A stretch of 64,000 nucleotides of DNA from NCBI GenBank assembly GCA_030614785.1, contig JAUWTJ010000001.1:65180-129179 (forward strand), given 5' to 3'. The position numbers and the translations under genes were made by a program. The notes under the pieces were generated by a model, which was given only the letters and a program-made list of their open reading frames with translations, made no database searches and had not been told where the DNA came from. Source of the stretch: Alphaproteobacteria bacterium. GTDB taxonomy: Bacteria; Pseudomonadota; Alphaproteobacteria; M2410. Positions within the stretch are counted from its first letter, which is position 1; each line of letters starts with the position of its first letter. Positions 1-18,345 of this stretch are shown here, one piece after another.

Positions 1-21
1 GCAAAAGATTGATGAAGGCTT

Positions 22-586
22 CTACAGGCCCGGTTGCTGCCAGATCGTTCCGGGACTTTGGGAAGAACATCTCCAAAGCATTGTCTGAAATCGTGTAGGA
101 ATCTGTCTCAAAATTGATCGTCCACCCGCCAACCCTCGAAAGTTTCTGAGTGTGTTGAAGCTCAGCACTGCTACGTTCCAGATTGCCATGCAGAAGTTCA
201 AGCTGTCGTTTTTGTCGGAACATTCCGATAAATCTTTTGCCTTGGAGACGAGGATATCCGCTTCCACCGGTTTTTGGACAAAATCAACCGCGCCCGGCTC
301 ATATCTCTTCTTGCGATGATCTGGATCATGTACAGAGGCACTGACAAATACGATCAGGACATGACGGGTGTTATTTGTCGAGCGAACGATCTCTGCCAGT
401 TCGAAGCCATCCATTTCAGGCATGTTCACATCGAGCAAAATCATGCTGCAGCATAAGCCGCAATGCTTCAACGCCTGACCTTGCTTCAATGACTTCCACA
501 TCTAACTGAGGCAGAATCGATCTGATATTGGTTAAATTGGTGCCGAAATCATCAACAGCAAGTATTTTGGGTAACTCCAATTTCAC
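22..586 (-). CDS. CheY-like single-domain response regulator, apparently frameshifted. The N-terminal half (GTG at 586, VKLELPKILAVDDFGTNLTNIRSILPQLDVEVIEARSGVEALRLMLQHDF) reads to a stop at 416-418; the C-terminal half (LLDVNMPEMDGFELAEIV...VDFVQKP) is the +1-frame ORF 22..501.
   Basis: Minus-strand translation from GTG 586 (SD GGGGGTGA 4 nt upstream) gives the REC N-half with the DD acid pocket. That frame hits TGA at 416-418. The tracked ORF 22..501 begins inside the REC domain at the LLDVNMP phospho-acceptor strand and has an in-frame TAG immediately upstream (502-504). The two halves overlap over 416-501, so a single-nt indel near ~436-445 is implied. Confidence 0.55.
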
Positions 587-623
587 AACATCACCCCCGA
601 AAACACGTAAACACTTTAACTCT

Positions 624-3554
624 TCACTTCTCTACCAAAAATTTTTCAATCCATCGCTGCGCGCCAGTGAAGGCAATCTCCAACTCAGCAAGGCTTGCCT
701 CTTCAAGAGTCCCTTCCGATAGTTGAATTTCTTTGGCAATCTTCTGGACGCGCCTGGCTCCTGAATTCCCGGCAATACCATGAAGGCCATGCGCAATTTC
801 CCTTGCCTTGCCATAGTCGCTGTCCACGACAGCCTCCCGCAAAGCGGACAAAATCAGGGTTGCATCCTCCGAAAAGAGGCACAAAAGACTTGCAACATTT
901 TCCGTGCCAAGCTCTGCCGATATCTTCTCCACATATGCCTCATCAACAACAGGAACCAGGTCAACCCCATCAGTATTGAAGTCCTCCTCCATCCTGCACT
1001 GTAATTCCGCACTCACATCCGTGTGTTCGGGGAATTGCATCATCGCCTCTTTCCTTTTCAAATTTAGAACCCGCCGAACCGTGGCCATCATCTTCGGCAT
1101 TTCAACTGGTTTCGTCAGCACTTCATCCATGCCCTCGGCAAGGTAGAGTTCGACCTGTTCCGGCAGGGCATTCGCTGTCAGGGCTACAATGGGAATGTCC
1201 TTGTAGTGCGTTTCCGAGGATCGAATTTGCAGCGTTGCGCCAACGCCATCCAGCTCCGGCATCTGAATATCCATCAGGATGAGATCAAACCTCTCACGCT
1301 TCAGAGCTTCCAGAGCTTCCTTGCCATTGTTCGCAACTGTACAGGTATGCCCATATTTCTTTAGGCAAGCGATCATATACATTTGATTTATGCGATGATC
1401 CTCAGCGACCAATATGTGCAGGGACTCAGGTTCATCCTCACAGCCAATATCAATAGTTGTCATATCAGCGTTGTACTTGCCAATTCCGCACTCCACATAG
1501 AACCAGAATGTGCTTCCGGTTTCACCATCACTGATCAGGCCAATCTCCCCTTCCATCAGCTGCACCAGTCCTCGCGAAATCGCCAGACCAAGGCCGGATC
1601 CGCCGTACTTTCTCGTAGTCGAACTATCCGCCTGGACAAACCTTTCGAACAAATCCCCCTGCACTTCAGGTGAAATTCCAATCCCTGTGTCCCTGACCAT
1701 GACATTCAAGCGACATGTCCCCTTGTCAACAACGTGATCAACTGTAACCAGAACATCCACGCTCCCCTCAGCGGTGAATTTCAGCGCATTGCCAACCAAA
1801 TTCAACAACACCTGTTTGATGCGTCCGGAGTCCGACTTCAAAAACTCGGGAACGCTTTCGTCCACTGTTGCTCCCAAGCTTATGGCCCTGGTCTTTGCTT
1901 CGGCGCCAAACAAACCAATGACCTGTTCAACAAGATGACGAACATTGAAGTCAATATTCTCAATTTCGATCTGGCTTGAACCCAACCTGACAAAGTCGAT
2001 GATATCATTGAGCACGGTCAACAAAGAGTGAGATGATTCGCAAATCACATCGACGTGAAGTCTCTGCTGATCACTTAACTCTGTATCCTGAAGCAATCGA
2101 GCCATGCCAAGAACTCCGTTCATTGGCGTCCGAATTTCATGAGACATATTTGCAAGAAACTCCGACTTGGCTTGTGAGGCTGATCGCGCTTCATCCATTG
2201 CCTTCTCCAGATCAAGCGCCTGCCTCTTGTATTCATCCGACTGTTGCTGAATTCGTCCTCGAGCGATAGACAGCTCTTCAAATTGAGTGCGGAGCGATTT
2301 TTGATTTTCCTCAAGAATTTGAAATGTCATTTTGCGAACACTAATGTCTGTCCCGATAGAGACGTATTGAAATATTTTTCCATCCCGATCAACAAACGGC
2401 ACTATGGTCGCGTCGTTCCAGAAAGTTGTTCCATCCTTGCGGAAGTTTCTGGTCTCCCCATGCCATGTTTCTCCCCGCGCAGTCTTCTCAATCAATTCCT
2501 TGCGTTTGGCTTTATCCGGAACGGTCGCACTTGAAATTTCCGAACCCTGATTGGAACCAAGGATCTCCTCCGAGCTATAGCCTGCGGTTTCGCAATATTG
2601 TCGATTCACGTACACCAATCTTTGGTTTGCATCGTGAATCAGGATCATATTGTGCTCGTCCAGAGCGCGTCTTTGCTGCTCCAGTTCATGCAGAACCGCT
2701 TCTGTCTCTCTTTTGGCCTTTTGCTGCGCCTTGCCGGTCTCTTCAAGTGCCTCGTAGGTCGAATAGATATTGGCCCCGAGACCAAGGAGAACACAAAGAT
2801 AACTTCCGAGCTTCAGCATGTGAGCCAAATCGAATTCAAGGTCGAAGAGCACCAAAGATTGAGGCATAAACAAAACCTGACCCAAGAGACTCAGAATGAG
2901 GCAATAGATAAGCCAATGATGCAAGGGCTCTTCGCGCCAGGCACCACGAAACGTCAGCCCAATGAAGGCCACTGCAAACAACACCCCGGAAATCAGCTCC
3001 GCTGGCCGGTGAAGCCACAAATCTGGAAAGTAGGCAGCTGGCAACGGAACGAACGCGAAGAACACAAAGCTTACAATCATAAACAGAACGACGATGATGT
3101 AGACCGTGTTTTCGTACTTGCAGACCTGTGCTGAAGTCTTCTCATCAGACAATTCCGTCCACACCAGCATCACAAGGACCACCGACAGATATAGTCTCGA
3201 TGAGATCCAGCTCCATGGAATAAGTGAAGGCATGTCCGACGGCAGAAATGTCACAAAATAGGGTGTCGTTACAAGGGCATGATAACCGTCAAGGCAAGCC
3301 GCTCCAAGGAAACCCGTTCCAAGCAAGAGATAGGTGCTGCTCTTCCTGGAATAATACCGTACCAGAGCAAGAGCTCCGACAACCGCCGCCAATATTGTCG
3401 CCGCGACCTCTTGAATCGTATGGAATTGAGGGCCGCTCGTCCAGCCGGAATTCCTGAAATACCAGTAGAAGGCACACAGAGCCATTACCAAAAAAAGGTA
3501 GCTCCACGCCCGCGCCGGTGTCACTCGCACATCGAAATTCTCAATCACCACCAT
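624..3554 (-). CDS. Membrane-bound hybrid sensor histidine kinase: N-terminal multi-pass membrane sensor region (~300 aa), PAS, coiled coil, HisKA, HATPase_c, REC, C-terminal HPt.
   Basis: Hydrophobic N-terminus; PAS (NMILIHDANQRLVYVNRQYCETAGY); H-box SEFLANMSHEIRTPMNGVLGM; N/G boxes LLNLVGNALKFT, RDTGIGI, GGSGLGLAISRGL; receiver HILVAEDHRINQ...DLILMDIQMPELDG; C-terminal HPt-like helix bundle (REIAHGLHGIAGNSGARR). Confidence 0.85.
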   Translation of the reverse strand: MVVIENFDVRVTPARAWSYLFLVMALCAFYWYFRNSGWTSGPQFHTIQEVAATILAAVVGALALVRYYSRKSSTYLLLGTGFLGAACLDGYHALVTTPYFVTFLPSDMPSLIPWSWISSRLYLSVVLVMLVWTELSDEKTSAQVCKYENTVYIIVVLFMIVSFVFFAFVPLPAAYFPDLWLHRPAELISGVLFAVAFIGLTFRGAWREEPLHHWLIYCLILSLLGQVLFMPQSLVLFDLEFDLAHMLKLGSYLCVLLGLGANIYSTYEALEETGKAQQKAKRETEAVLHELEQQRRALDEHNMILIHDANQRLVYVNRQYCETAGYSSEEILGSNQGSEISSATVPDKAKRKELIEKTARGETWHGETRNFRKDGTTFWNDATIVPFVDRDGKIFQYVSIGTDISVRKMTFQILEENQKSLRTQFEELSIARGRIQQQSDEYKRQALDLEKAMDEARSASQAKSEFLANMSHEIRTPMNGVLGMARLLQDTELSDQQRLHVDVICESSHSLLTVLNDIIDFVRLGSSQIEIENIDFNVRHLVEQVIGLFGAEAKTRAISLGATVDESVPEFLKSDSGRIKQVLLNLVGNALKFTAEGSVDVLVTVDHVVDKGTCRLNVMVRDTGIGISPEVQGDLFERFVQADSSTTRKYGGSGLGLAISRGLVQLMEGEIGLISDGETGSTFWFYVECGIGKYNADMTTIDIGCEDEPESLHILVAEDHRINQMYMIACLKKYGHTCTVANNGKEALEALKRERFDLILMDIQMPELDGVGATLQIRSSETHYKDIPIVALTANALPEQVELYLAEGMDEVLTKPVEMPKMMATVRRVLNLKRKEAMMQFPEHTDVSAELQCRMEEDFNTDGVDLVPVVDEAYVEKISAELGTENVASLLCLFSEDATLILSALREAVVDSDYGKAREIAHGLHGIAGNSGARRVQKIAKEIQLSEGTLEEASLAELEIAFTGAQRWIEKFLVEK

Positions 3555-4491
3555 TCTGTTCTCCGCGAGGAATGGTAGTCAATATTTCATCCTTCGATGT
3601 ATTCATACGGACGCAGACTCTGTTTCCGCACCCTTGATACTCGACAGCATCAAACGCTATTTCACGAGCGAAGAATATACCGCGTCCATGGTAAGGCGAC
3701 TTCTTCCTGCTCGTTCCATCGAGAAATGGAGTAAAATCAAACCCGACACCACCATCTTCAATCGTAATCTCGATGTGACTATCGAGACGTTTGAAATCAA
3801 CATGAGCAACCCGATCACTAAAGGGTTTCCATTTAAGTCTATAGTCAATCTCCTCAGCCCACCGCCTTTCCGTAAGAAGTTTGGACTTCAGATCCCAACC
3901 AATTCCCAGGTTTCCATGTTCAACGGCATTGACCAACAATTCGAGCAAACCCACCGCCGCGACATCCGGTCTCGGGCACGCCAGCGCCAACATGGTTGAG
4001 AGATTTCGCGCCTCATCCAGCGTTCGAAACCCGAAAGATCCGGACACAATATTGCCGATTGCCGACGTTCTTTGTTTCACCTCTGCGGCCAGTTCATTGA
4101 CCCTCGCGTGATAATTCAACACCGCACGGGTAACGGCACCAACCGAGTCCGCTGCTTCCGATGAACTCAAAATGACATCGCTCATTGCAGCCAGATCAGA
4201 AGCTCCATCCTTCTCGTCATCGATCCCAATGATCGCAGTTTTTGCATGATATTGCGTCAGCCACTGATCTATAGAGTCGAAGTGCTCTGACAGCCAGGCG
4301 TTGGAGATCACAAGAACAGACATCTTTGATGAGCGATCAGGTCCCCCGTCGCGAGACTCCTGATCATCCAGAAAAAAACTGGGCTCATACCCGGAAGATT
4401 CAAATCGATTGATAATCGCATTCGTGCTTTCACAATCAGCCAGAGCCAACATAACATTAACTTCTTGCGTATCACCCAACAAATTGTTCAC
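3541..4491 (-). CDS. RsbW/SpoIIAB-like GHKL serine-protein kinase (HATPase_c_2) with an N-terminal ~170-aa extension; partner-switch kinase.
   Basis: C-terminal N-box LLELLVNAVEHGN, G1 EDGGVGFD, G2 YHGRGIFFAREIA typical of anti-sigma-factor kinases; the N-terminal domain has no clear match (possibly a degenerate receiver). Its start overlaps the stop of the upstream PP2C gene by 4 nt. Confidence 0.6.
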   Translation of the reverse strand: MNNLLGDTQEVNVMLALADCESTNAIINRFESSGYEPSFFLDDQESRDGGPDRSSKMSVLVISNAWLSEHFDSIDQWLTQYHAKTAIIGIDDEKDGASDLAAMSDVILSSSEAADSVGAVTRAVLNYHARVNELAAEVKQRTSAIGNIVSGSFGFRTLDEARNLSTMLALACPRPDVAAVGLLELLVNAVEHGNLGIGWDLKSKLLTERRWAEEIDYRLKWKPFSDRVAHVDFKRLDSHIEITIEDGGVGFDFTPFLDGTSRKKSPYHGRGIFFAREIAFDAVEYQGCGNRVCVRMNTSKDEILTTIPRGEQNGGD

Positions 4492-5738
4492 TCCCCTTCG
4501 AGCCAGTCGACGGCCAACATCGACACATCATCCGGGATCGGGTCATGATATCTCGCACTCAACTCTTCTGATATACACGCAATAATCTCCGAGGCATCTT
4601 TCAATGCCGGACTTGCAACCAACTCCGTGACTTGCTCTGTCGACAGAACAGGTTTGTCTGGTTGTGGACACTCAATCAGTCCATCGCTATACAAAAATAA
4701 TCTGTCACCAGCGTGAAAGGGAACACTCAAGCATTCATATGTGGCCTGGGCAGTGATTCCCAGCGGCAACCCTGCGGAGGCAAGTTCTTCCGTGGTTCCG
4801 TCGCTGCGCACCAGGATCGGAGGTGGGCTCCCGGCTGCGGCCCAGGTCAATCGACCAGCCGCTGTATCAATGACCCCATGAAGCATGGTCGCAAAAATCC
4901 CGGTTTTCAAAACGTCAGAGAGATATTCATTGGCCCTTTTTAGGGCCTCTGGCGGGTTGCTCCAATCGAAGGCTCCGCTGTCGATAAATGTTTGAAGTCG
5001 AAATGTATTCAAAGACGATGCGGCCCCGCGGCCAGAAAAGTCAGTCATATGGAGACCGAAACTATGATCATTTATCCGGTGGGCACCCCACAAATCCCCC
5101 CCGAGACGATCCGACGCCTCGTAGCAAGCATCAATCGTCAAGCCTCTAACATCCGTAAGATTTTTAAGGTTTTCAACGTCAGGGAGCAAACACCTCTGCA
5201 TCTCCTGCATTGCAGTGACTTCCTGCTCCATACGCAGGTAATAGCTGCGAAGTTTTTTGATGAGAAAGTGACGTTCCAGATGGGTGCGAACCCGAGACAG
5301 AAATTCGGCAATCTCAATTGGTTTCGAGACGACATCAGAGGCCCCGACCTCAAAGACCCGCCCCCTGGACTCTCCGCCATCAAGAGAGGATTGAACAAGA
5401 ATTGGCGTATCAACAAATTGCGGTATCTTGCGGATTGCCTCGCAAAACCTGAAGCCATCCATCCCGGGCATCACAAGGTCCAGTACGATGAGGTCAGGAG
5501 ACCTTTTGCCAACGCTGTCCAAAGCTTCCTGGCCGTCGGATGCATAGGAAAGGTTCCTGTATCCAGCCTGCTCCAGCGCCATGCGAATAAGATCACGCAT
5601 GAAAAGCTGGTCATCGACAATTAGAATACGGGCATCGAGGAGATTTCCCGCCAGTTTCCCGGACTTGACGTCAGTGTCAGGCGTAGGCCAGATGTCGTCG
5701 CGAGACGGGCGGTTCGCTCGATATTTGAGTTCTGACAT
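4488..5738 (-). CDS. Response regulator with C-terminal PP2C/SpoIIE-family serine phosphatase domain (RsbU/HsbR-like).
   Basis: REC ILIVDDQLFMRDL...DLIVLDLVMPGMDG; PP2C region with GGDLWG, LHMTDFSGRG, DRLFLYSDGLIE motifs. Confidence 0.85.
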   Translation of the reverse strand: MSELKYRANRPSRDDIWPTPDTDVKSGKLAGNLLDARILIVDDQLFMRDLIRMALEQAGYRNLSYASDGQEALDSVGKRSPDLIVLDLVMPGMDGFRFCEAIRKIPQFVDTPILVQSSLDGGESRGRVFEVGASDVVSKPIEIAEFLSRVRTHLERHFLIKKLRSYYLRMEQEVTAMQEMQRCLLPDVENLKNLTDVRGLTIDACYEASDRLGGDLWGAHRINDHSFGLHMTDFSGRGAASSLNTFRLQTFIDSGAFDWSNPPEALKRANEYLSDVLKTGIFATMLHGVIDTAAGRLTWAAAGSPPPILVRSDGTTEELASAGLPLGITAQATYECLSVPFHAGDRLFLYSDGLIECPQPDKPVLSTEQVTELVASPALKDASEIIACISEELSARYHDPIPDDVSMLAVDWLEGE

Positions 5739-5758
5739 GGGTTGCCTCTCACCTATAC

Positions 5759-6064
5759 TCAGCGGGTGATGTTAATTATTTTGTCAAGAGCCGCCAGATC
5801 GATAATCCTTTCGACCTGACCAGTCGGCTTGTTCACACTAAACGTTTGTTTACGGAAGCCCGCCTGTTCGGCTGCTATCAACAACATGCCGATGCCTGCA
5901 CTGTCGATTGAGGACACACGCTGAATGTCCAGGACAACCACATTTTTTTCGGACTTGTTGATTTCTTCCAATACTTCGCGAAAACGTCCGTGGTCTGCGA
6001 ACGATAGATCACCGCTGAGATCCGCCCTGAATCCCGCATCGGAAACTGTTACTGTATAATCCAC
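5759..6064 (-). CDS. STAS-domain anti-sigma-factor antagonist (SpoIIAA/RsbV/HsbA-like).
   Basis: 101 aa; VLDIQRVSSIDSAGIGMLL motif with the conserved phosphorylatable Ser context; lies immediately upstream of the PP2C and kinase genes. Confidence 0.8.
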   Translation of the reverse strand: MDYTVTVSDAGFRADLSGDLSFADHGRFREVLEEINKSEKNVVVLDIQRVSSIDSAGIGMLLIAAEQAGFRKQTFSVNKPTGQVERIIDLAALDKIINITR

Positions 6065-6075
6065 TTTGGTCTCTC

Positions 6076-7293
6076 CTAGAATAGTTCGATTGAGTTCTCT
6101 TCGCCTACATCTTTATCCGCGGCAACATACTCGGCCACCGCAAGGCCCGGGGTCAGGGCCTTTTGAATAAATCTCTTTTTGACATCACCAAGCGTGTACT
6201 GCCCGATAATGGCCGACAACATTTCCGAGACATCGCCCTCTTCGATATCAATCCCATCAACCGAGCAAGCTTCAGTGTGAAATTCCTGGAAGGCATCAGA
6301 CAGAATGTTCAGTGTGTCCGTTACACTCTCCAATTGCTGTTGCGCCCGGTCCTGGAACTGCATGTCAACAACAAGCGAACCAACATCCCTGGAAATTCGA
6401 TCACTCATTTCACCCGAGCTGGATAGCGCCTCGGAAAGATTATTACTTTGACTGATCATGGCTGTGAGAACTTTCTGCAGCCGCTCCTTGGCAATAAGAT
6501 GCCCTGACATGTCCAGCGAGGCCAGCTTCAACAATCTCTTGTGTCCCTCTGTCACGCCATCATGTGTACGCCGCATCTGGGTCCGAATTTCATCTGCCAT
6601 GTCATCAATCTTCTTGCTGAGCGCGCGAATTTCCTCGGCAACAACAGAAAACCCTCTGCCCGCCTCGCCCGCTCTAGCCGCCTCGATCCGGGCATTTAGA
6701 GCCAGTATCGCTGTTTGCCTGTTGATTGCCTCAATTCCAGTGATCGTTTTTTCAACACCGCTAACTTCCTTCACGACGTCATCAAGAGAATAGACGATTT
6801 GAAGACCCTGCTTCGACATCTGCAGGACCGTGCCAATGATATCCTCCAGGACGCCCTCCATGACCTCGGGCACCTCGACCAATTTGAGAAATTCGCCATC
6901 AATTTCGATCTCCGCTGACAGTGCAATGACTTCCTGGATCTGCTCGCCCTGCCGGCCGGCATTTGTCGCAAGGTTTTGGAAGCGAGCCGCAATTTCGGAG
7001 ATCTTTTCCTCAACAAGCTGGCCTGTTCCTTTGACTTCGTCGATAACGGCAGACAGGGCACCTTGTTGTGCAGCTGACAGACCGACACATTTGGTAATGA
7101 GATCTATCAGGACAGCGGGACTCTCCGCTGCGGGCGCGTCGAACAGTTCTTCCTCGCCTGTCGCTATGTCCTGCTCAATATCCGGATCGATAGTCGACCC
7201 AATCCGGTCGAGGCCGGACAGCTCTTCTACAAGCGCATCCTCTGCTACATCCAACTCAGACGGCGCGAAGTATGATTTTAGGCGTCTAAACAC
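6076..7293 (-). CDS. Soluble (no TM) methyl-accepting chemotaxis protein.
   Basis: MCP signalling tip [32 protein letters not shown]; no hydrophobic N-terminus. Confidence 0.85.
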
Positions 7294-7379
7294 AATGACC
7301 TCATCGTTCCCAATTTTCCGCCCTTGCTACGCTCTGCCGGCGCAGTGGGCCAATTTTCCTATGTGCAGTCTCTATGCTT

Positions 7380-8492: not shown

Positions 8493-9102
8493 TTCCGGTC
8501 AGCGAACTACGATATCGAGCCTCTGCTTTCGCCACTCTGTCCTGCCGCTCATCAGACCTCTCAACGAACTTTCGTTGGACTTTTCCGCTATCAGCATAAA
8601 AATGTATTCGCCGAGCATACCGGCCGCCAAGGTCATGCGATGCAACCTCAATGCCTTCCTTACTCATATAGTCCAGAGAAAATCGCGCATTGTTGTCCCC
8701 TATCATCTGGCTGGATTCTATAACGTTGCCGCCGCCGAAAAGTTTGACAATCAGATCCTCTTTTCTTGACCCTGTGGAAAAGAAAGCATTGAACAAGGAC
8801 TCCATGGCAAAATGGCCAAACCGCAGCGAAAACCCGGCCCCGCCCCAGTCGCAATCCTCATCACCAGGCAGCATAAAATGATTCATTCCGCAAAATCCTG
8901 TTCTTGCATCCCGCACACAGGTCGACACACAAGATCCAAGCGTCGTAGTCAGCATTTCATTACGCTCTCGAGTAATATACTGCGTACCAGGAAGAATCTT
9001 GATAACCCATCGGTCATACCTCTTGTCGAAGTATCGCGACAGCATCTCCGACGGCGTCTGACCGCTCTTCCTTTTTGATGAAGTAGACAGCACATTGCTC
9101 AC
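8443..9102 (-). CDS. cheD: Chemoreceptor glutamine deamidase CheD.
   Basis: LGSCVSTCVRD...GMNHFMLP motif characteristic of CheD; sits between cheR and cheB. Confidence 0.85.
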   Translation of the reverse strand: MSNVLSTSSKRKSGQTPSEMLSRYFDKRYDRWVIKILPGTQYITRERNEMLTTTLGSCVSTCVRDARTGFCGMNHFMLPGDEDCDWGGAGFSLRFGHFAMESLFNAFFSTGSRKEDLIVKLFGGGNVIESSQMIGDNNARFSLDYMSKEGIEVASHDLGGRYARRIHFYADSGKVQRKFVERSDERQDRVAKAEARYRSSLTGNESDKDSIELFDENED

Positions 9103-9105
9103 ACC

Positions 9106-9975
9106 TTACTCCATCTTTTCGTAAACTGTTCGACCGACCATCTTGTAATTATCCAGCACACCCAGGAGACTTTCAGCATGCCCGGTATAAAGGTACCCCC
9201 CGACTTTCAGCTGGCGGTCAAATCTCTTGACCAATTTTTCCTTGGTTTCATCGTCGAAATAGATCATCACATTTCGGCACATGATCGCATCGAAGATGCC
9301 ATCCATCGGCCAGGGGGACAGGAGGTTCAATTGCCTGAAGGTGACGAGGCGCCGCACATCATCACCCATTTTCATCTTATTACCGGAAACGGAAACAGCC
9401 TTGCCAGACAGACGGTTAAGCAATTTTGGTGGCAGATCAGAATATTGACTGTGTGAATACTCGGCATTGCGCGCCTTTGTCAGAATATTGCTGTCGAGGT
9501 CTGTTGCAAGAATTCGAACATCGCATTTTTCCAGAGCCGCCAAATAAGCCATCAGTGTCAGGGCTATAGAATAGGGTTCCTCACCTGATGAGCAGGCTGC
9601 CGACCAAATTCGAAACTTCGATCTACCGGCTCCTTTCGCCTCAGCATCCAACTGGGGAAGAAAGACATCCTTCATGTGAATAAAATGATGCGCCTCTCTG
9701 AAAAATTTGGTGTGGTTAGTCGTCAGGGCATTGATAAAATCTTGAAATTCCTCGCTGCTGTCATCTTCTAACAACGCACAATAGTCGCGAAAAGACTCCA
9801 GCTGCAAATGACGCAGACGTTTGGACAGACGTCCATAGACCAGGTTTCTTTTTTCGTCCGAGAGGGCAATCCCCGCCTTGTCATGAACAAGGTCGGCGAT
9901 AACGCGGAAGTCTCGATCTGTAAATCGATACTCCCGCGCTTCCTCGTTTTTGGCCTGTAAGGTCGATAGAACCAA
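9106..9975 (-). CDS. cheR: Chemotaxis protein methyltransferase CheR.
   Basis: CheR N-terminal helical domain (FRVIADLVHDKAGIAL), FFREAHHF, IWSAACSSGEEPYSIA SAM-binding motif. Confidence 0.9.
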   Translation of the reverse strand: MVLSTLQAKNEEAREYRFTDRDFRVIADLVHDKAGIALSDEKRNLVYGRLSKRLRHLQLESFRDYCALLEDDSSEEFQDFINALTTNHTKFFREAHHFIHMKDVFLPQLDAEAKGAGRSKFRIWSAACSSGEEPYSIALTLMAYLAALEKCDVRILATDLDSNILTKARNAEYSHSQYSDLPPKLLNRLSGKAVSVSGNKMKMGDDVRRLVTFRQLNLLSPWPMDGIFDAIMCRNVMIYFDDETKEKLVKRFDRQLKVGGYLYTGHAESLLGVLDNYKMVGRTVYEKME

Positions 9976-10019
9976 CTGACGATCTCCTGCTTTCAGTGTC
10001 TTCAGATCCGGGGCGAGTC

Positions 10020-12569
10020 CTAGAACTCACTCCAGTCTTCATCTTCCTTGATAGCGGTTGCCACGGCCGCCTGCATTTGACGGACCGGAACGGGCCCACG
10101 TACAGGTAATGGCACTTTGCGTACTGCGCTGGCATGAGCTGCGCTCTCGCCGCCGAGCTGGAAAAAGCCCATTCGCGAGTGCATCGCCTCGGACTGATCC
10201 CGCAGCGTCTTGGCAGCGGCGGCATTTTCTTCAACCAGAGCAGAGTTCTGCTGCGTGACTTCATCCATGCCGCTAACGGCCTTGTTGATTTCAGCAACAC
10301 CGGTGGCCTGTTCCTCACTGGCCGCCGCGATTTCAGACACAATGTCTGTCACCTTTCGGATCGAGTCGACGATTTCAGTCAGAGCACCGCCAGCCTCGCC
10401 CACCAGAGACACGCCCTTTGTGACCTGGCCGGAACTTTCATCGATAAGCTCCTTGATGTCCTTGGCAGCCTGTGTCGAGCGTTGTGCAAGCGTTCGAACT
10501 TCGGAAGCGACAACCGCAAATCCGCGCCCGGCATCCCCGGCCCTGGCCGCTTCAACTGAAGCATTAAGAGCAAGGAGATTTGTCTGGAATGCAATCTCGT
10601 CAATGACGCCGATGATGTCGGAAATCTTGCCGGACGACTCTTCTATGCTGGCCATGGCAGAAACAGCATTTTCCACAATGCCACCGCCCTTGGTGGCAAC
10701 GTCGCGAGCCGTGGTAGAAAGTTGGTTGGCTTGCTGCGCATTTTCGGCATTTTGTTTGACCGTTCCGGCCATTTGCTCCATGGAGGCTGCAGTTTCCTGC
10801 AAGGCCGAAGCCTGCTGTTCCGTCCGCGATGACAAATCAGTCGTTCCACTGGAGATTTCTTCAGACGCATTGGAAACTTCGTTTGCCGCAGATTGCAACT
10901 CACCGATGATCTCCGCCAGACGTTCCGACGTATTATTGGTGTTCTGCTTGATATCATCAAACAGACCCTGGTAGTCTTCATTGATTCTATCGGTCAGATC
11001 ACCTTTGGCCAGATTCTCCAGTACGTTTCCGAGGTTCTTCATGATGTCTTCAACATTGGCGGACTGAGTATTGAGACTTTCCGCGAGATTGCGCATAAAG
11101 CCTTCCTTGCCTTCAAGCGGAATACGGATCGATAGATCACCCGCAACGGCTTTTGTGACCAGATTTTCGATTTCACCTTCAACCAGTTTTTCCATCGTCT
11201 CGTTTTTCCACTCGACGACCGTACCGACTTTGACGCCGTCAGCACCAAGAACCGGATTGACGGTCAGGTGGAAATTCATCCCGCCGGCCAGAACATCGGC
11301 CTCGTAGGTTGACGTGAGACCTTCAAGCAAACCACGTTGGTGAGCCGGATTTTTGTGGAAGATATCGATACATGTACCGATCAGGTTATTGGCATCAAGA
11401 GCAGGAATATCCCTTCTCAAATCGGCTTCCGCACCACGCATCATGCTGGTCATTGTGTCATTCATGTAAACGATGTTGAGGTCGGGATCGGCCAGCATGA
11501 CATTGGTACTGCACTTGTCCAGCGCAGACCGAATTCTGGAATTCTCGTCGGCCTGGCTCTTGGCTTCACGTTGCCGTGCGTTTTCAGCCGTCACATCCGC
11601 CCACTCAACCACAGTACCTATGCGTTCACCGGCATCATCGTTAATCGGTGAGACAACAAGATCAAAATCAAGACCCCCGATTTCCAGAGAGGTTTCTGTA
11701 GTGCTGCTCAAAGCATCAAGAATGCGCCTTTGATGAGCCGGGTTCTTGTGGAAGATATCGATATTGCTACCTTCCAGCTTCCGCGCATCAAAGTTCGGCA
11801 GATCCTCTCGCAACGCCACCTCATTGCCGCGCATCATTTCGCTCATCGTGTCGTTGAGATAGACCAGATTGTAGTCGGCATCAGCCACCATGACATTGGT
11901 CCGACAGCTATCAAGGGCAGAGCGCAGTCGGGCATTCACCATCGACAATTGCCTGTCAGCCTCTTCAGCGCGCAATCTGTCGGTCATGTCATCCCATTCA
12001 ACGACCGTTCCGGTACGAACCTTTTTCTCATCGAAAATCGGATTGGCGATCAAGGAAAACGTGCGGCCACCGGCTGTTATTTGCGTTCTGTAGGTGCTGG
12101 TCAAACCGTGAACCATGCTCCGCTGGTGAGCGGGGTTCTTGTGAAAAGCATCAATATTAGTACCGATGAGCTGATCGGCGTTAAAGCCGGACAGCTCCGA
12201 TTTCAAATCCGCTTCTGCGTTCTTCATCATCGCCAGCATGGTCTGATTCATATAGATGATGTTGAAATCCGCATCCGCGATCATCACATTCTGATCACAG
12301 GTCTGCAGGGCAGTCGCAATGCGTGAATCGCTTTCCCCTGCCGTACTTTGTACAAACCGTGTATAGAAGATCAAAGCCAGTCCGGCGAGACCGACAATCC
12401 CTCCAGCGTAGGCCCACAGGGGCCCAAAGGCCTGATACAATCCAAATGAACCAAATTGCACCACTGCGATGGCTCCGACCATGACGGCCAGACGGATCCA
12501 CCGTTCGTTAAAATCAACATTAGACATCTTCTTCACCCTTTCTTCGCGCAACCGCGAAATATGAATCAA
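10020..12569 (-). CDS. Methyl-accepting chemotaxis protein with 2 N-terminal TM helices, three tandem PAS domains, HAMP and MCP signalling domain. TTG at 12569 overlaps the cheW stop; alternative ATG at 12527.
   Basis: Three ~132-aa PAS repeats (NVMIADADFNIIYMN.../NVMVADADYNLVYLN.../NVMLADPDLNIVYMN...); signalling tip [31 protein letters not shown]. Confidence 0.9.
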   Translation of the reverse strand: MIHISRLREERVKKMSNVDFNERWIRLAVMVGAIAVVQFGSFGLYQAFGPLWAYAGGIVGLAGLALIFYTRFVQSTAGESDSRIATALQTCDQNVMIADADFNIIYMNQTMLAMMKNAEADLKSELSGFNADQLIGTNIDAFHKNPAHQRSMVHGLTSTYRTQITAGGRTFSLIANPIFDEKKVRTGTVVEWDDMTDRLRAEEADRQLSMVNARLRSALDSCRTNVMVADADYNLVYLNDTMSEMMRGNEVALREDLPNFDARKLEGSNIDIFHKNPAHQRRILDALSSTTETSLEIGGLDFDLVVSPINDDAGERIGTVVEWADVTAENARQREAKSQADENSRIRSALDKCSTNVMLADPDLNIVYMNDTMTSMMRGAEADLRRDIPALDANNLIGTCIDIFHKNPAHQRGLLEGLTSTYEADVLAGGMNFHLTVNPVLGADGVKVGTVVEWKNETMEKLVEGEIENLVTKAVAGDLSIRIPLEGKEGFMRNLAESLNTQSANVEDIMKNLGNVLENLAKGDLTDRINEDYQGLFDDIKQNTNNTSERLAEIIGELQSAANEVSNASEEISSGTTDLSSRTEQQASALQETAASMEQMAGTVKQNAENAQQANQLSTTARDVATKGGGIVENAVSAMASIEESSGKISDIIGVIDEIAFQTNLLALNASVEAARAGDAGRGFAVVASEVRTLAQRSTQAAKDIKELIDESSGQVTKGVSLVGEAGGALTEIVDSIRKVTDIVSEIAAASEEQATGVAEINKAVSGMDEVTQQNSALVEENAAAAKTLRDQSEAMHSRMGFFQLGGESAAHASAVRKVPLPVRGPVPVRQMQAAVATAIKEDEDWSEF
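11196..12317 (-). repeat. Three tandem ~396-bp in-frame repeats encoding the three PAS domains of the MCP.
   Basis: Protein-level repeats of ~132 aa, 50-60% identical (…FHKNPAHQR…GTVVEW…). Confidence 0.7.
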
Positions 12570-13117
12570 CGGACTTGATCGTCCTGATTTTCGGCGATTG
12601 CACCGAACTCCTCACCTTGTAATAAACTTGATAACGAGAGGATGGCGACCATCTCCTCATCCAGGGCTATCAATCCCTTCAAATATCGCGCATCGGGCGA
12701 TTGCCCGGCCTCGGGAACATCCTTGACCTGGCTCCGCTCCGTACTAAGAATATCTGACACAGCATCGACCAGCAGACCTACGATCTGCTCACCTACATTG
12801 ACAATAATCACGACGTGCATCGGCGTCGCGTCTGTTTTCTCACCCCAAAATCTGTTTCTCAGATCAATAATCGGAACAACGATCCCGCGCAGGTTCAAGA
12901 CCCCGCGCACGTATTTCGGTTGATTGGGCAGTCCTGTAATTTCCGTCCAACCCTTGATTTCACGGCATCGCATAATATCCACGGCGTATTGACCATCGCC
13001 AACGCGAAAACTGATATACTGACTTTCGTCGACCGCAGATTGGAGATGGTTCATTGCCAGACCCGTGGGGGCCAGGCCCGTATCCCCTGATGTATCAATT
13101 GCCACTGCTTCCATCAC
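12566..13117 (-). CDS. cheW: Chemotaxis coupling protein CheW.
   Basis: CheW-like domain (YAVDIMRCREIKGWTEITGLPNQPKYVRGVLNLRGIVVPIIDLR). Confidence 0.9.
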   Translation of the reverse strand: MMEAVAIDTSGDTGLAPTGLAMNHLQSAVDESQYISFRVGDGQYAVDIMRCREIKGWTEITGLPNQPKYVRGVLNLRGIVVPIIDLRNRFWGEKTDATPMHVVIIVNVGEQIVGLLVDAVSDILSTERSQVKDVPEAGQSPDARYLKGLIALDEEMVAILSLSSLLQGEEFGAIAENQDDQVR

Positions 13118-13142
13118 ATGTTTCCTTCACTCAAACGGCAGA

Positions 13143-15305
13143 TCAAACTGCCTCTGCTTCAATTTTGACAACATCTGCTTTAGACGTATCTGTCTTCATG
13201 ATGTCTGCACCGGGATCCTTGCTGCCTCCGGAGCTGTGGAGAGTCACGCCTTCAAAACTGTCAACATCGACAATTAGCGCGACCATTCCGTCGCCCAGAA
13301 TCGTGGCGCCGGAAACCCCCGGGATGATCTTGTAGTTCTCTTCCATACTTTTGATGACGACCTGTTGCTGGCCGAGCAATTCATCGACGACAAGGCCGAT
13401 TTTCTTGCCTGACGCCAATTCCACAAGGACCACCAAAGCCTTGGCCGGATCGGTTTCCGCGCCCTTGACGTCAAACACCTGCGACAGGTGCACAAGCCGC
13501 AAGACCTCGCCACGGATATGCATAACTTCAAGGCCGTCCGTCAGCTTTCGAATTGAACCTGGTTCAGGACGCACCGTTTCGATAATCGTCGTCAGCGGCA
13601 GGATATATTTCTGGGTTCCAACTGAAATCAACATGCCGTCAAGAATGGCCAGTGTGAGGGGTAGCGTCAGAGTGAAGGTTGTCCCGACACCCATTTCCGA
13701 CTCGACCATTGTACGCCCGCCCAGAGCAAGTATGTTCCGGCGCACCACATCCATGCCGACGCCGCGCCCGGAGACCTCGCTGACCTCTTCGGCTGTTGAG
13801 AACCCCGGATGAAAAATAAGTTCATCAACTTCTTCAGGCGTCAGGTTCTGGTCTTTTGCAACAACACCGCGCTCTATTGCTTTTTCAAGGACCCTGTCGC
13901 GGTCAATGCCGCGTCCGTCGTCTGACACCTGAATCAGAATTCGTCCTGAGCGATGCTCTGCGGAGAGTTTGATCGTCCCTGTTTCCGGTTTTCCTGCGGC
14001 AAGGCGTTCTGCCGGAGGTTCAATCCCGTGATCCAGAGAGTTCCGGATCATGTGCGTTAACGGATCGCCCAGTTCTTCAATGACGGTTTTGTCAACTTCG
14101 GTCGTTTCACCGCAGGTTTCGAGGTCAATTTTCTTTCCGAGCTTGGCGGACAGATCTCTGACGACCCGAGGCATGCGCGAAAACACCGATTTAACCGGCT
14201 GCATCCGAATAGCCATAACGCCTTCCTGCAGGTGCCGCGTCCTGAGTGCCAGATCTTCAAGACCCTGCAGTTCAACAGCCGCGCGCGGACCAAGAGCCAG
14301 GGAAATATCCTGAACGACCATGGACTGAGCAATCACCATCTCGCTAACCTGGTTGACCAATCGGTCAACCCGGTCGAGATCAACTCGAATTGAGGTAATT
14401 TGAGAGCCGGCTTTCTGTTTGCCGGACTTTGAAGCAGAGGTGGTCTTCTGCGAGACCGCTTCGGTTTCCGCCACCGCAGATGGCATCAACAGCTCTGGCT
14501 CTTCCACACTGGCTGCGGTTTCCGCATCTGTCTCGCGGGCTACACCCGCTTCCTCAGTAATCTCAAGATCACAATCATCAATGACAAACTCGAAGACCTC
14601 GTCAACATCTGCTCGCGAGCACGAACTTTCAAGCGTCAACAGCCAGTGAAAATAGGCATCCTCAACTTCCATCGTTCTGAAATCGGGAAGCTTCGTGCTA
14701 TCAAGCACGATGTCCAGCTGCCCCAAAGATCGCAGCTCGCGAATAATCAGGAGGGGTTCATTGGCATGCCTGAATAATTCCGCCTTGGGACGGAAGGCGA
14801 TCGAGTAGATCGTATCGGCGGAAGCAGTATCGTCAGAATTTCCGTCAGTGTCATCGAGCAGGTCTTCAGTCGCCGCACCGCTTGAGCTTTCACCATCACC
14901 GGTTCCTGACAACAGGTCTTCGAGAAGCGCTCTGACGTCTTCGTCTGAACCACCTTCAAATTCAACATCCTCTTCTGCCGCAGCAACAAGATCTGCCAAC
15001 ACATCACCGCCACGGATCATGATGTCGATAACATTCTGATTAATGTCTAGTTTGTCCTGGCGCATTTGATCCAGCACCGATTCAAATATGTGCGTATAGG
15101 CGACAAGACGGTCAAACTTGAAGGCGCCCGCGCCGGCCTTCATAGAGTGGACCGCTCGAAAAATGGCGTTGAGGTCTTCAAAATCGATCGCATCGACAGT
15201 TAGTGTGGTGACCTTATCTTCCAACACCTCCAGGAGCTCGCGGCACTCCTCGAAATACGTCTTCTTGAATATCGCATAGGGATCTTCATCAGGAAGATTT
15301 GACAT
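13143..15305 (-). CDS. cheA: Chemotaxis histidine kinase CheA. The ORF track extends to GTG 15329, but ATG 15305 has a strong AGGAGGAG SD.
   Basis: P1/HPt (AIFRAVHSMKAGAGAF), dimerisation, HATPase_c (GRGVGMDVV, DDGRGID) and C-terminal CheW-like P5 domain. Confidence 0.9.
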   Translation of the reverse strand: MSNLPDEDPYAIFKKTYFEECRELLEVLEDKVTTLTVDAIDFEDLNAIFRAVHSMKAGAGAFKFDRLVAYTHIFESVLDQMRQDKLDINQNVIDIMIRGGDVLADLVAAAEEDVEFEGGSDEDVRALLEDLLSGTGDGESSSGAATEDLLDDTDGNSDDTASADTIYSIAFRPKAELFRHANEPLLIIRELRSLGQLDIVLDSTKLPDFRTMEVEDAYFHWLLTLESSCSRADVDEVFEFVIDDCDLEITEEAGVARETDAETAASVEEPELLMPSAVAETEAVSQKTTSASKSGKQKAGSQITSIRVDLDRVDRLVNQVSEMVIAQSMVVQDISLALGPRAAVELQGLEDLALRTRHLQEGVMAIRMQPVKSVFSRMPRVVRDLSAKLGKKIDLETCGETTEVDKTVIEELGDPLTHMIRNSLDHGIEPPAERLAAGKPETGTIKLSAEHRSGRILIQVSDDGRGIDRDRVLEKAIERGVVAKDQNLTPEEVDELIFHPGFSTAEEVSEVSGRGVGMDVVRRNILALGGRTMVESEMGVGTTFTLTLPLTLAILDGMLISVGTQKYILPLTTIIETVRPEPGSIRKLTDGLEVMHIRGEVLRLVHLSQVFDVKGAETDPAKALVVLVELASGKKIGLVVDELLGQQQVVIKSMEENYKIIPGVSGATILGDGMVALIVDVDSFEGVTLHSSGGSKDPGADIMKTDTSKADVVKIEAEAV

Positions 15306-15319
15306 TGTGGAAACTCCTC

Positions 15320-15685
15320 CTATGGACACACTTTGTTGACGACTTGCAGAAGTTTTTCCGGATCGAAGGGCTTCACTATCCAGCCTGTTGCACCGGCAGC
15401 TCTGCCTTGCTGGCGTTTCTCGTCATCCGTTTCCGTGGTAAGCATGAGGATTGGCGTCGCCTTGAAGTCCGCTTGCCCGCGCAGCTCCTTGACGAGAGTA
15501 ATGCCATCCATAATCGGCATATTGATATCTGTTATAACAACATCAATGCGCTTGCCGGAAACCTTGGACAGAGCATCCTGTCCGTCTACGGCCTCCAGGA
15601 CGTCAAATCCGGCGCCTTTTAGCGTAAAGGCAACCATGTCCCGCATGGTCTTGGAATCATCGACAGTAAGAATCAACTTGCTCAT
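15320..15685 (-). CDS. cheY: Chemotaxis response regulator CheY.
   Basis: 121-aa stand-alone REC (ILTVDDSKTMRDM...VVITDINMPIMDG...KPF). Confidence 0.9.
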   Translation of the reverse strand: MSKLILTVDDSKTMRDMVAFTLKGAGFDVLEAVDGQDALSKVSGKRIDVVITDINMPIMDGITLVKELRGQADFKATPILMLTTETDDEKRQQGRAAGATGWIVKPFDPEKLLQVVNKVCP

Positions 15686-16032
15686 TTATCAGCACTCCAC
15701 AAATCCAGTTCCGCAGCCAGGCCAAGATCAGAAAATGATCGGGCCATAACCTCTGACGGGTCTTTAAACACCACATCCACATTTTCCCCGGCGAAACTTT
15801 GGCGAGCCGCCACAAGTAGCTGGATGATCGAGGTATCCATCCGTTCCACCCCTGAGCCATCAACAGTGAGGCGATCCACATCACATGCAGCACGCAGAAT
15901 CTCTTCTTTGACCCGCGTTGCGCTCGAAAGATCACAGTATGAAGGCAACTCAAAAAACCCTTTGGGGTCAGTCGCCTTCGATGATGCGTTTACGACTTTT
16001 TCTGTCGCTTCATTCTTTGCAACTTTAGCCAC
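15682..16032 (-). CDS. STAS-domain protein, first gene of the che operon (like the small orf that precedes cheY-cheA in alphaproteobacterial che operons).
   Basis: 116 aa; STAS-like LTVDGSGVERMDTSIIQLLVAA; GTG start; 4-nt overlap with cheY. Confidence 0.6.
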   Translation of the reverse strand: MAKVAKNEATEKVVNASSKATDPKGFFELPSYCDLSSATRVKEEILRAACDVDRLTVDGSGVERMDTSIIQLLVAARQSFAGENVDVVFKDPSEVMARSFSDLGLAAELDLWSADK

Positions 16033-16418: not shown

Positions 16419-16934
16419 CTACCCCCTGGCCTGAAATTCATCCAGTCGCGCAAAGCCCTGAAACAGGAGCCCCTTGAAGGCTTCGTCCATTTCTGTTTGC
16501 CCGGCAGCTTCAATCATGACGCCTGCAAGGATCATATAGGTGGCCGTCCACGCTTCTTTAACGGCTGGAGTAAAGGCGGCACCAAGCCCCTGCTCCAATG
16601 TCCACAAAAGCGCAGTAGCGACGGTTTGATAGTGAGACTCCTTAACCCCGAATTTCGCATGGCTGGCCCCAAGAGCCTGTACCGTCGGTATAATCTTGTC
16701 CAGATTTCTCAGGCTGGACACCGAAACGCCCAATGTGGCCATTAACTTGCGACCCTGCTCAACCATATCGCCCTTAAAGAGGGGGCGCAGGGAGGGATCA
16801 AGCTCGAACAATCGACTGTAGAACAGGTCAGCGGCCTGCTCCTTGATTTTTGCCACCGCCTGAAACGAGGTTTCCACAAGATCGATTTGTTTCGGAGTCA
16901 AACTCATTTTATTGATCTTCCATAAACGGGACAC
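16419..16934 (-). CDS. Single-domain sensor-type globin (protoglobin/GCS-globin-like), probable start MSLTPKQ at 16907.
   Basis: Globin-sensor signature ([42 protein letters not shown]); ~45% identity to the two globins at 37.9-39.3 kb. Confidence 0.75.
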   Translation of the reverse strand: MSRLWKINKMSLTPKQIDLVETSFQAVAKIKEQAADLFYSRLFELDPSLRPLFKGDMVEQGRKLMATLGVSVSSLRNLDKIIPTVQALGASHAKFGVKESHYQTVATALLWTLEQGLGAAFTPAVKEAWTATYMILAGVMIEAAGQTEMDEAFKGLLFQGFARLDEFQARG

Positions 16935-17491
16935 AAACAGGTTTTGGGTCGAAAAATTGCCCTTCTCTACAGGTGGGCAGCTAATTCATTCTCGCTTTTT
17001 ATATTAGATACTTAACAACATAATCGTGAAAAATCCGTTACGATCGGTTGTTGCGAATGCTTTGCAACCAGGACCGATCAGTAGCCTTTCTCGACTGCAT
17101 TGTCAGCAGGGCCCGTGTTGCGGAAAAAGAGCCCTGCGTTGGATGCCATATACAAGGCTCCTGCGCGCGCGACATTGATATAGTTTTGGTGTGTAGCGTG
17201 AACTGGATCGAAGAGGCTACTACGGGATTTTACTGCCTTCTCAATCAACTCCACTCGGACGGCTCCAACCTCGCCCTAAATCAACAAGGGACGAAATGAG
17301 ATCGACGGATACGACATTAACACAGCCTCCTCAGGCACGAAACAGAGGAGACTAATCACCTCCCGGCACATCGATGAATCGCAAAAGTACCAAAAAGTAG
17401 ACATTTCAGATTCCGCTGCCTGACACGAAAACTCCTGCGCTCGATTGGAACGCCTAACCCTTTGATCTAATACATCTATCTGGAAAGAAAA

Positions 17492-18235: not shown

Positions 18236-18345
18236 CTTCCCTCAAGTTAATAGTGGTCTTCGCGGTAGTATCAAAACCTGGCTTCCAGCTGCTCTTTCAG
18301 TTTATTGCATATCGGCTCATGCCCGCTCATCCGCCAGCGCTGGCA

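Follow-up and report, generated by a model that had tools for sequence, protein, structure and literature searches.

Organization of the cluster

The 64,000-nucleotide (nt) stretch of contig JAUWTJ010000001.1 (Alphaproteobacteria bacterium, assembly GCA_030614785.1) analysed here, referred to as the window, opens with a co-directional minus-strand cluster that fills positions 1–16032 and in which a chemosensory system is physically coupled to a STAS/PP2C/GHKL-kinase partner-switching module. The cluster as a whole is best explained, with moderate confidence, as a 'stage 1'-type F7 chemosensory operon carrying a split partner switch. The sequence covered comprised the 64-kb window and approximately 7.6 kb of flank. 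The first-pass annotation had described both the coupling and a list of 14 genes, 13 of which were assigned correctly, as judged from Pfam matches; the last one turned out to be a fragment of a longer, frameshifted gene.

Read from its 5′ end, the cluster begins with a STAS-only gene, CheS-like by position (STAS1, 15682–16032; Pfam STAS_2, 45.8 bits), followed by a single-domain response regulator of the F7/CheY1 type (CheY, 15320–15685; Response_reg, 100.8 bits) and by CheA (13143–15329), which contains P1 Hpt, H-kinase_dim, HATPase_c and CheW-like P5 domains in Pfam, scores 570 bits with the NCBIfam CheA model and probably starts at the ATG of codon 9 (15305). A single copy of CheW (12566–13117; Pfam CheW, 123.5 bits), with E. 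coli CheW as its best match in the PDB, precedes an Aer2-like receptor composed of three PAS domains, HAMP and MCPsignal (10020–12569; Pfam and PDB matches), the likely start of which is the ATG of codon 15 (12527). The adaptation enzymes follow in the order CheR methyltransferase (9106–9975; Pfam CheR, 190 bits, and CheR_N), CheD deamidase (8443–9102; Pfam CheD, 81.6 bits) and CheB methylesterase with a receiver (REC) domain (7380–8492; Pfam CheB_methylest, 218 bits, and Response_reg). The gene call in the public contig GCA_048633335.1 (L001) suggests a later CheB start and a protein of 352 amino acids (aa; 7380–8438).

Downstream of cheB lies a McpA-like soluble methyl-accepting chemotaxis protein (MCP, 6076–7293; MCPsignal, 79 bits), which has zero hydrophobic segments and no recognisable sensor domain, and then a second STAS gene of the anti-sigma-antagonist type (STAS2, 5759–6064; STAS_2, 48.6 bits). 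The next genes encode a REC-PP2C phosphatase response regulator (4488–5738; SpoIIE, 140 bits; Response_reg, 90.9 bits), a 316-aa protein that joins a pseudo-receiver to a Bergerat-fold (RsbW/SpoIIAB/LvrC-like) kinase/anti-sigma domain (3541–4491; HATPase_c_2, 28.6 bits with a cut-off of 27.4) and a membrane hybrid kinase with the Pfam architecture MASE3-PAS_9-HisKA-HATPase_c-Response_reg-Hpt and several hydrophobic segments within residues 46–237 (624–3554). The presence of a hybrid kinase with its own HPt behind the partner switch, proposed at first pass, was thus borne out. The cluster runs off the left edge of the window with the 5′ part of a REC-GGDEF-EAL gene (1–586), in which two frameshifts were recognised by three-frame translation and by tblastn with an intact orthologue from the relative L085.

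With maximal open reading frames (ORFs), the successive gaps measure, from 5′ to 3′, −4, −10, 25, −4, 44, 3, −50, 86, 11, 20, −4, −14 and 36 nt. The earlier statement that most junctions overlap by 4–14 nt was overstated, as with the L001 gene calls clear overlaps are found at three junctions only (STAS1/CheY, PP2C/kinase and kinase/hybrid kinase). The largest intergenic gap, of 86 nt, is situated just before mcpA–STAS2. Because all gaps are of 86 nt or less and no terminator-like site was found inside any of them, in a scan that performed no better than on shuffled sequence, a single transcript for the whole cluster is plausible. The sigma-70 promoter scan, overall likewise no better than on shuffled sequence, returned none in the 386-nt leader, and a tRNA alone was matched in the Rfam scan. 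In Shewanella, the che1 locus, including crsR and crsA, is reported from reverse transcription PCR (RT-PCR) to be co-transcribed (PMC9855816).

Consistent with the first-pass annotation, the window ORFs scanned, which were a part of all ORFs, include no sigma factor and no flagellar gene. They likewise include no anti-sigma factor, and neither the cluster nor these scanned ORFs contain cheZ, cheV, fli, flg or mot. Within the 64-kb window and its flank, this is the sole che cluster; the stage 1 F7 definition also lists a separate F6 system elsewhere in the genome.

Chemosensory core and receptor

The published stage 1 F7 cluster consists of an anti-sigma antagonist, cheY, cheA, two cheW genes, an aer2-like gene, cheR, cheD, cheB, a mcpA-like gene, a second antagonist and a serine phosphatase, and is exemplified by Vibrio cholerae cluster III, V. 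vulnificus che2 and Methylomicrobium alcaliphilum (Ortega et al. 2020, PMC7184735). Apart from the single cheW, genes 1–11 of the window (STAS1 to REC-PP2C) follow this order. The two arrangements share a STAS gene directly upstream of cheY–cheA (overlapping cheY by 4 nt in the window), a 36-heptad (36H) aer2-like receptor followed by cheR, cheD and cheB, and a soluble mcpA-like receptor, a second STAS and a Ser phosphatase downstream of cheB. The system had initially been read as a chemosensory pathway with an 'alternative cellular function'; an unclassified novelty of this kind is not upheld, as the gene order is that of published stage 1 F7 clusters (PMC7184735) and the link of F7 clusters to a partner switch has also been published (PMC9855816).

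The kinase-control module of the receptor aligns without gaps to residues 222–534 of E. coli Tsr, that is, to the 36-heptad class, and its matches among solved structures are P. aeruginosa Aer2 (3vol, 3.6e-54; 4hi4) as well as 6ceq, deposited as 'methyl-accepting chemotaxis protein'. Each of the three PAS domains carries the motifs FHKNPAHQR and GTVVEW. The hallmark of Aer2 PAS domains is a haem-ligand His (Eη) together with an O2-stabilising Trp (Iβ) (PMC10107281), to which the two motifs correspond, and haem binding is accordingly a prediction from these residues. A tri-PAS Aer2 is already known in V. vulnificus, where the C-terminal pentapeptide of VvAer2 is EWEEF (PMC10107281); the window receptor ends in DWSEF. 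Whereas the described Aer2 proteins are soluble, the window receptor has two hydrophobic segments (residues 24–45 and 50–69) that form an N-terminal hairpin. The hairpin is kept in the relatives L002, L086 and L088; in L085 a further PAS domain takes the place of the hydrophobic segments. The best solved relative of the window CheA is E. coli CheA (467 bits, versus 302 bits for Thermotoga CheA).

The two STAS proteins are not equivalent. STAS2 contains IDS55AGIG, which aligns to MDSAGLG of TM1442 and keeps the DSxG phospho-serine motif, while STAS1 has MDTSIIQ in its place. The TIGR00377 anti-sigma-antagonist model separates them in the same manner (45.9 bits for STAS2 versus 19.6 bits for STAS1), and in the alignment STAS1 groups with the Vibrio 5′ STAS and S. 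meliloti CheS, and STAS2 with the STAS proteins of Maricaulis and of the 3′ side of the Vibrio locus. STAS2 is presumed, from its motif, to be the substrate of the partner switch, at Ser55. CheS is a STAS-only protein encoded upstream of cheY1–cheA, which binds CheA and promotes the turnover (dephosphorylation) of CheY1 (PMC12654446). Owing to its position and the shared loss of the serine motif, STAS1 is read as CheS-like, and is thus probably a CheA accessory protein rather than a switch substrate. The window CheY shares 58% identity with its Vibrio F7 counterpart, 50% with S. meliloti CheY1, which is a phosphate-sink CheY, and only 32% with CheY2.

The partner switch

The PP2C phosphatase and the kinase are encoded by two genes that overlap by 4 nt and are not parts of one polypeptide. 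The REC-PP2C protein was also considered as Pseudomonas RssB, and this candidate was rejected (112 bits versus a cut-off of 700 in NCBIfam). Of the initial description of the 316-aa protein as an RsbW-like GHKL kinase, the Bergerat-fold domain stands: the predicted fold matches LvrC, SpoIIAB and RsbW, and the family alignment shows invariant N, G1 and G2 boxes, with the ATP-binding Asn, DxGxG and GxG. A degenerate receiver domain, which carries Ser at the position of the phospho-acceptor Asp and has also lost the conserved Thr and Lys, was overlooked. No NCBIfam model matches this protein; its relatives are encoded in at least 588 stretches of species-representative genomes, and the homologues are mostly of approximately 300 aa, with a true receiver and HATPase_c_2.

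The window kinase aligns to the C-terminus of a 692-aa REC-PP2C-spacer-GHKL protein of Hirschia maritima (45% identity, E 2e-50) and to the C-terminus of a 564-aa REC-PP2C-HATPase_c_2 protein of Vibrio (28% identity, E 2e-9), and both of these fused three-domain proteins adjoin F7 clusters. Given this homology between the window kinase and the third domain of the fusions, the proposal that the window contains an HsbR-like trio split into separate genes holds.

RpoS is not known from alphaproteobacteria such as the Rhodospirillales, and the target of the switch is probably something other than this sigma factor. The characterized switches CrsR/CrsA and HsbR/HsbA control RpoS, FlgM and HsbD (PMC6482189; PMC9855816), with CrsR acting with RpoS, and HsbA with FlgM or HsbD (PMC6482189). 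The sole cyclase gene among the scanned window ORFs is the frameshifted REC-GGDEF-EAL gene.

A frameshifted REC-GGDEF-EAL gene at the end of the operon

The last gene had been taken for a CheY-like response regulator at 22–501. This 159-aa ORF covers only positions 43–109 of the REC profile in Pfam, and three-frame translation together with alignment to the intact orthologue shows it to be an internal segment of a REC-GGDEF-EAL gene, which starts at GTG 586 and ends approximately 1553 nt past window position 1, beyond the left edge. The statement that the operon lacks a diguanylate cyclase was therefore wrong, as the operon does include the gene of a cyclic di-GMP (c-di-GMP) enzyme. The missing 3′ part is supplied by L001, in which it encodes a GGDEF-EAL protein. 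After correction of the frameshifts, the 715-aa protein matches the full Response_reg profile as well as GGDEF and EAL, and the GGDEF, RxxD and EAL-site residues are readable in the sequence; a PAS domain between REC and GGDEF was not confirmed by Pfam. Exact searching with the 159-aa ORF retrieved no called gene.

Both lesions fall inside the REC domain. The first is an out-of-frame multi-base deletion at approximately 430–442, the second a 1-nt deletion at approximately 233–234, and a premature TGA is present at 416–418. An intact 723-aa orthologue occupies the same place, directly after the hybrid kinase, in the metagenomic relative L085; it is 63% identical to the corrected window protein over 99% of its length and, in tblastn against the window, yields three pieces in frames +1/+2/+1 that mark both lesions. 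The gene is cleanly missing, with no remnant, in L088, which shares 93% nucleotide identity with the window, and in the more distant L002 and L087.

It is unlikely that the two frameshifts are assembly or sequencing errors and that an intact REC-GGDEF-EAL protein is the true terminal output of the operon. Such an explanation would account for the fact that the combined loss of bases at the two lesions is divisible by three and the frame is regained, that all REC signature residues are still encoded, that the 1.8-kb GGDEF-EAL part is uninterrupted with its GGDEF, RxxD and EAL-site motifs intact, and that the L085 orthologue at the same position is intact. However, the same lesions are carried by a second assembly record, L001, which differs from the window by 3 mismatches in 13,554 nt, 0 of them at the lesions, and which may derive from the same reads; one of the lesions is a multi-base deletion and not a homopolymer slip. 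A gapped DNA pattern spanning the first frameshift gave zero matches in JGI metagenomes. The clean absence of the gene from the 93%-identical strain and from two further relatives suggests that it is being lost, and REC-GGDEF-EAL appears to be on its way out in this lineage. A receiver broken in this genome is thus preferred over mis-assembly, which is less likely.

Relatives and the modular tail

The nearest named relatives belong to Kiloniella, Terasakiella, Aestuariispira, Paremcibacter, Hirschia and Maricaulis, which are Rhodospirillales and other alphaproteobacteria; judged from them, the host is probably a marine alphaproteobacterium of the Rhodospirillales. Linkage of the F7 cluster to STAS and REC-PP2C was observed in L002, L004, L008, L017, L019, L034 and L085–L088, and the kinase gene or domain is also present in all of these loci except L085. 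Kiloniella and the alphaproteobacterial metagenome-assembled genome L017 possess the F7 cluster with STAS, REC-PP2C and kinase. In the Terasakiella loci L013 and L014, REC-PP2C and the kinase adjoin che genes, and no STAS2 or McpA match was obtained there at the thresholds used. Cassettes of HPt-STAS-REC-PP2C-kinase without che genes occur in L003, L009 and L020 (Maricaulis and one other genome).

Behind the phosphatase, the composition of the operon varies. The window and L001 encode the kinase, the MASE3 hybrid kinase-HPt and the frameshifted REC-GGDEF-EAL; L088, L002 and L087 encode the kinase and the hybrid kinase and have no REC-GGDEF-EAL; L085 has no kinase, and encodes the hybrid kinase together with the intact c-di-GMP gene; L086 encodes the kinase and has neither of the other two. 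The hybrid kinase-HPt and the c-di-GMP gene thus form an optional tail, the parts of which come and go among relatives and are therefore dispensable. A scan of metagenomes with the hybrid kinase recovered generic hybrid kinases, with at most 42% identity in the kinase core and 50% in one short fragment, and no che or partner-switch genes were found beside them.

Further signalling genes accompany the cluster in individual relatives. The L085 operon continues past REC-GGDEF-EAL with a PAS-HATPase (PAS-ATPase) protein and a REC-HD-GYP phosphodiesterase (16621–19843). The MASE3 kinase/c-di-GMP theme recurs at the opposite end of the cluster in L089 (263–3638), where a MASE3-PAS histidine kinase, a receiver and REC-GGDEF lie divergently, upstream of a globin gene and the che operon. 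In Terasakiella sp. A23 (L013, 8101–8841), the kinase/REC-PP2C/F7 cluster has as neighbours a single-domain receiver and an ODP-family di-iron protein (PF19583); this would add a further type of candidate O2/iron sensor to the system, in another genus. Past the left edge of the window, the genes behind GGDEF-EAL in L001 (15312–19251) encode a MarR regulator, a pair of single-domain receivers and a histidine kinase of the dCache-PAS type. L002, L087 and L088 keep the MarR gene together with its neighbouring receiver; a dCache-PAS kinase also follows in L002 and L087, as a fusion with a receiver, and not in L088.

Proposed signal flow and alternative explanations

From the domain content, gene order, synteny, motifs, predicted kinase fold and frameshifts established above, we infer a scheme of phosphotransfer steps, kinase substrate and output. 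The membrane-tethered Aer2-type receptor would sense O2 via three haem-PAS domains, as suggested by their motifs, and would control CheA through CheW, with CheR, CheD and CheB adapting the receptor by docking at its C-terminal DWSEF. For STAS1 and CheY, the most likely role is that of a pair acting on CheA in the manner of CheS and CheY1, as an accessory protein and a phosphate sink, and not as a motor switch. By homology, REC-PP2C would dephosphorylate STAS2 at Ser55 and the pseudo-receiver-GHKL protein would phosphorylate it. The kinase and/or STAS2 probably sequesters a partner, which may be a sigma or anti-sigma factor or a cyclase; partner sequestration is a proposal in the case of LvrC and has been demonstrated with CrsR and HsbR. 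The MASE3-PAS hybrid kinase would add a second, membrane-derived signal, passing phosphate via its own HPt to the phosphatase REC. This last step is proposed because the che-less HPt-STAS-REC-PP2C-kinase cassettes mirror the Pseudomonas hptB-hsbR-hsbA arrangement (PMC6482189). Ancestrally, the HPt may also have fed the REC of the GGDEF-EAL enzyme. As that REC is destroyed by the two frameshifts, the c-di-GMP branch in this genome would be either dead or uncoupled from phosphorylation as a REC-less 591-aa GGDEF-EAL ORF.

A more specific and decidedly tentative version, which we consider improbable in its entirety, is that the F7 array does not signal through CheY at all, that CheY together with STAS1 serves as a sink, and that the output of the array is the split switch, which would integrate O2 and the MASE3 signal and control a non-RpoS sigma factor and, via the shared HPt, c-di-GMP turnover.

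Several observations weigh against the stage 1 F7 assignment and the signalling scheme built on it. The F7 class is put forward from gene order and similarity, and one cheW only lies between cheA and aer2, versus two in the stage 1 definition. The P5 motif of CheA, LTTIIET, is ambiguous when set against the published motifs of Pseudomonas F7 (LVNVNEI), E. coli (LNAVMES) and F6 (LTYIVES): it matches neither of the first two and looks nearer to that of F6. STAS1 shares 29% identity with S. meliloti CheS in the alignment, a similarity that is not significant by pairwise BLAST (E 4.4). No sigma or anti-sigma gene that might encode the partner of the switch is among the scanned ORFs of the 64-kb window, and the tail genes vary between the relatives L085, L086, L002, L087 and L088. 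Moreover, no interaction of CheA2 with RsbU was detected by bacterial two-hybrid assay in V. vulnificus (PMC10107281), which argues against direct CheA-to-phosphatase signalling in that organism.

The last two points also favour the view that the cluster consists of two or three independent neighbours, namely F7 che genes that do not signal to the switch, an HptB/HsbR/HsbA-like relay fed by the MASE3 kinase alone and a decaying c-di-GMP gene. The existence of the STAS-REC-PP2C-kinase cassette with its own HPt in che-less loci (L003, L009 and L020) and the position of the biggest internal gap immediately before mcpA–STAS2 are in keeping with it. Nevertheless, the order che/mcpA/STAS/PP2C has been kept in Vibrio (gammaproteobacteria), in Hirschia and Kiloniella (alphaproteobacteria) and in the clade of the window itself; Terasakiella keeps REC-PP2C and the kinase by its che genes even though STAS2 and mcpA were undetected there; crsR and crsA are reported to be co-transcribed with the Shewanella che1 genes (PMC9855816); and a terminator-like site is present in no gap. 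Independence of the units is, on this balance, assigned a low probability.

The least likely alternative is an ordinary flagellar aerotaxis operon in which Aer2 acts through CheA and CheY~P on the motor and the switch and the hybrid kinase are passengers, since, even though its Che proteins are as similar to those of the motility-controlling S. meliloti che1 operon as to those of Vibrio F7, Aer2 receptors produced in E. coli elicit responses to O2 (PMC10107281) and the receptor bears a C-terminal pentapeptide for adaptation enzymes, the sole CheY is of the CheY1/F7 type and distant from the motor-binding CheY2, cheZ, cheV, fli, flg and mot are missing from the cluster and the scanned window ORFs, the gene order is that of a Vibrio cluster that does not control motility according to the literature, and the STAS/PP2C module is kept beside the cluster across distant lineages.

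The favoured reading, of a stage 1-type F7 operon with a split switch, bears on a class of systems from which the chemotaxis machine of E. coli evolved. The function of the Aer2-type (stage 1/2) F7 systems "remains unclear" (PMC7184735). The locus shows the stage 1 architecture outside the gammaproteobacteria, where it was defined, and introduces no new principle. A free-standing LvrC-like kinase/anti-sigma protein with a dead receiver could be purified and used as a pull-down target by itself, the hybrid kinase-HPt encoded within the operon suggests a phosphodonor of the phosphatase, and the circuitry of the operon includes, or once included, a c-di-GMP enzyme. Relatives missing one or the other tail gene constitute a ready comparative series; if the output is indeed the split switch, the window and these relatives would serve as natural 'deletion variants' for solving the function of stage 1/2 F7 systems.

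Genomic surroundings

A single-domain globin (PF00042, 162 aa) is encoded at 16419–16907 on the minus strand, 386 nt upstream of STAS1. The same adjacency of globin gene and operon is found on the L088 contig and in L089 (globin 82% identical), and not in L090 (64%). Membership of the globin gene in the operon was rejected, the adjacency being confined to close relatives and the gap amounting to 386 nt. Its location beside an operon predicted to sense O2 through haem-PAS domains is suggestive, although the linkage is shallow. Elsewhere in the window, a 254-aa protein (37857–38621, minus strand) combines a globin domain with the first MCP signalling arm only (profile positions 6–107 of 172). 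As homologues of similar length have the same two domains (P0307 and P0335), it may be described, by domain composition, as a short globin-coupled receptor-like protein.

The 5′ bound of the region is formed by tRNA-His (GTG) at 17492–17568 (minus strand), which separates the globin gene from those farther upstream. Beyond it are encoded, on the strand of the operon, a 171-aa protein without a Pfam or NCBIfam match (17720–18235) and, just upstream of this, a single-domain response regulator (18346–18873), and, on the opposite strand and 4.4 kb upstream of the operon, a PAS-HisKA-HATPase sensor kinase (20460–22925; 800 aa in the gene call). A 1021-aa protein at 54942–58007 (plus strand) contains PNP_UDP_1 and 'novel STAND NTPase 4' domains in a region with a local GC content of 43.5% versus approximately 55%; this looks like an acquired STAND-type gene, with a possible anti-phage role.

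Comparison with known systems

The core of the operon is of a known kind, and its link to a partner switch is already published for Shewanella (PMC9855816). No description was found of a pseudo-receiver kinase encoded by a gene of its own, of a MASE3 hybrid kinase-HPt within such an operon, of its REC-GGDEF-EAL tail or of a tri-PAS Aer2 tethered to the membrane; in the literature library searched, no paper brings MASE3 together with Aer2 or chemosensory clusters, which is weak negative evidence.

S. meliloti che1 (L092) likewise has a small STAS-only gene immediately upstream of cheY–cheA, and both STAS1 and CheS are devoid of the DSxG serine. The che1 operon controls the flagellar motor and contains CheY2 and CheT, whereas the window cluster has neither. 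The identities of its products to those of the window are 52% for CheA, 51% for CheB, 45% for CheR and 50% for CheY; for Vibrio F7 the corresponding values are 40, 48, 42 and 58%.

LvrC of Leptospira (PDB 9QIH) possesses a canonical receiver that is phosphorylated by LvrB at D53 (PMC13269768). Its Bergerat domain with N, G1 and G2 boxes is present in the window protein, in which, however, the acceptor D53 is replaced by Ser and the conserved Thr and Lys are lost too. In contrast to the window kinase, no adjacent STAS or PP2C has been described for LvrC.

The CrsR/CrsA switch of Shewanella oneidensis Che1 and the HptB-HsbR-HsbA system of P. aeruginosa share with the window a REC-controlled PP2C, an RsbW-like kinase/anti-sigma domain and a STAS antagonist. 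In Pseudomonas, HptB provides an HPt phosphodonor; in Shewanella, there is a genetic link between the switch and an Aer2/F7 cluster. CrsR and HsbR each unite the three domains in one protein, whereas the window encodes these parts in two genes, and its HPt forms part of a dedicated hybrid kinase within the operon. The CrsR/HsbR targets RpoS, FlgM and HsbD were not found near the window operon.

A direct parallel in gene order is provided by chromosome II of Vibrio sp. THAF191d (L091), found by tblastn of a plasmid/chromid collection with CheA, on which STAS-CheY-CheA-CheW-CheW-Aer2-CheR-CheD-CheB-MCP-STAS-[REC-PP2C-HATPase_c_2, 564 aa]-FapA is colinear with the window. The window soluble MCP (6076–7293) occupies the position of a 398-aa MCP in this locus. 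The Vibrio locus has two cheW genes and the window one, and the N-terminal membrane hairpin with three PAS domains distinguishes the window Aer2 from that of the stage 1 F7 comparator. In Vibrio the kinase is the third domain of the phosphatase protein, whereas in the window it is a separate gene product with a pseudo-receiver, and where the next Vibrio gene is fapA, the window adds the MASE3 hybrid kinase-HPt and REC-GGDEF-EAL.

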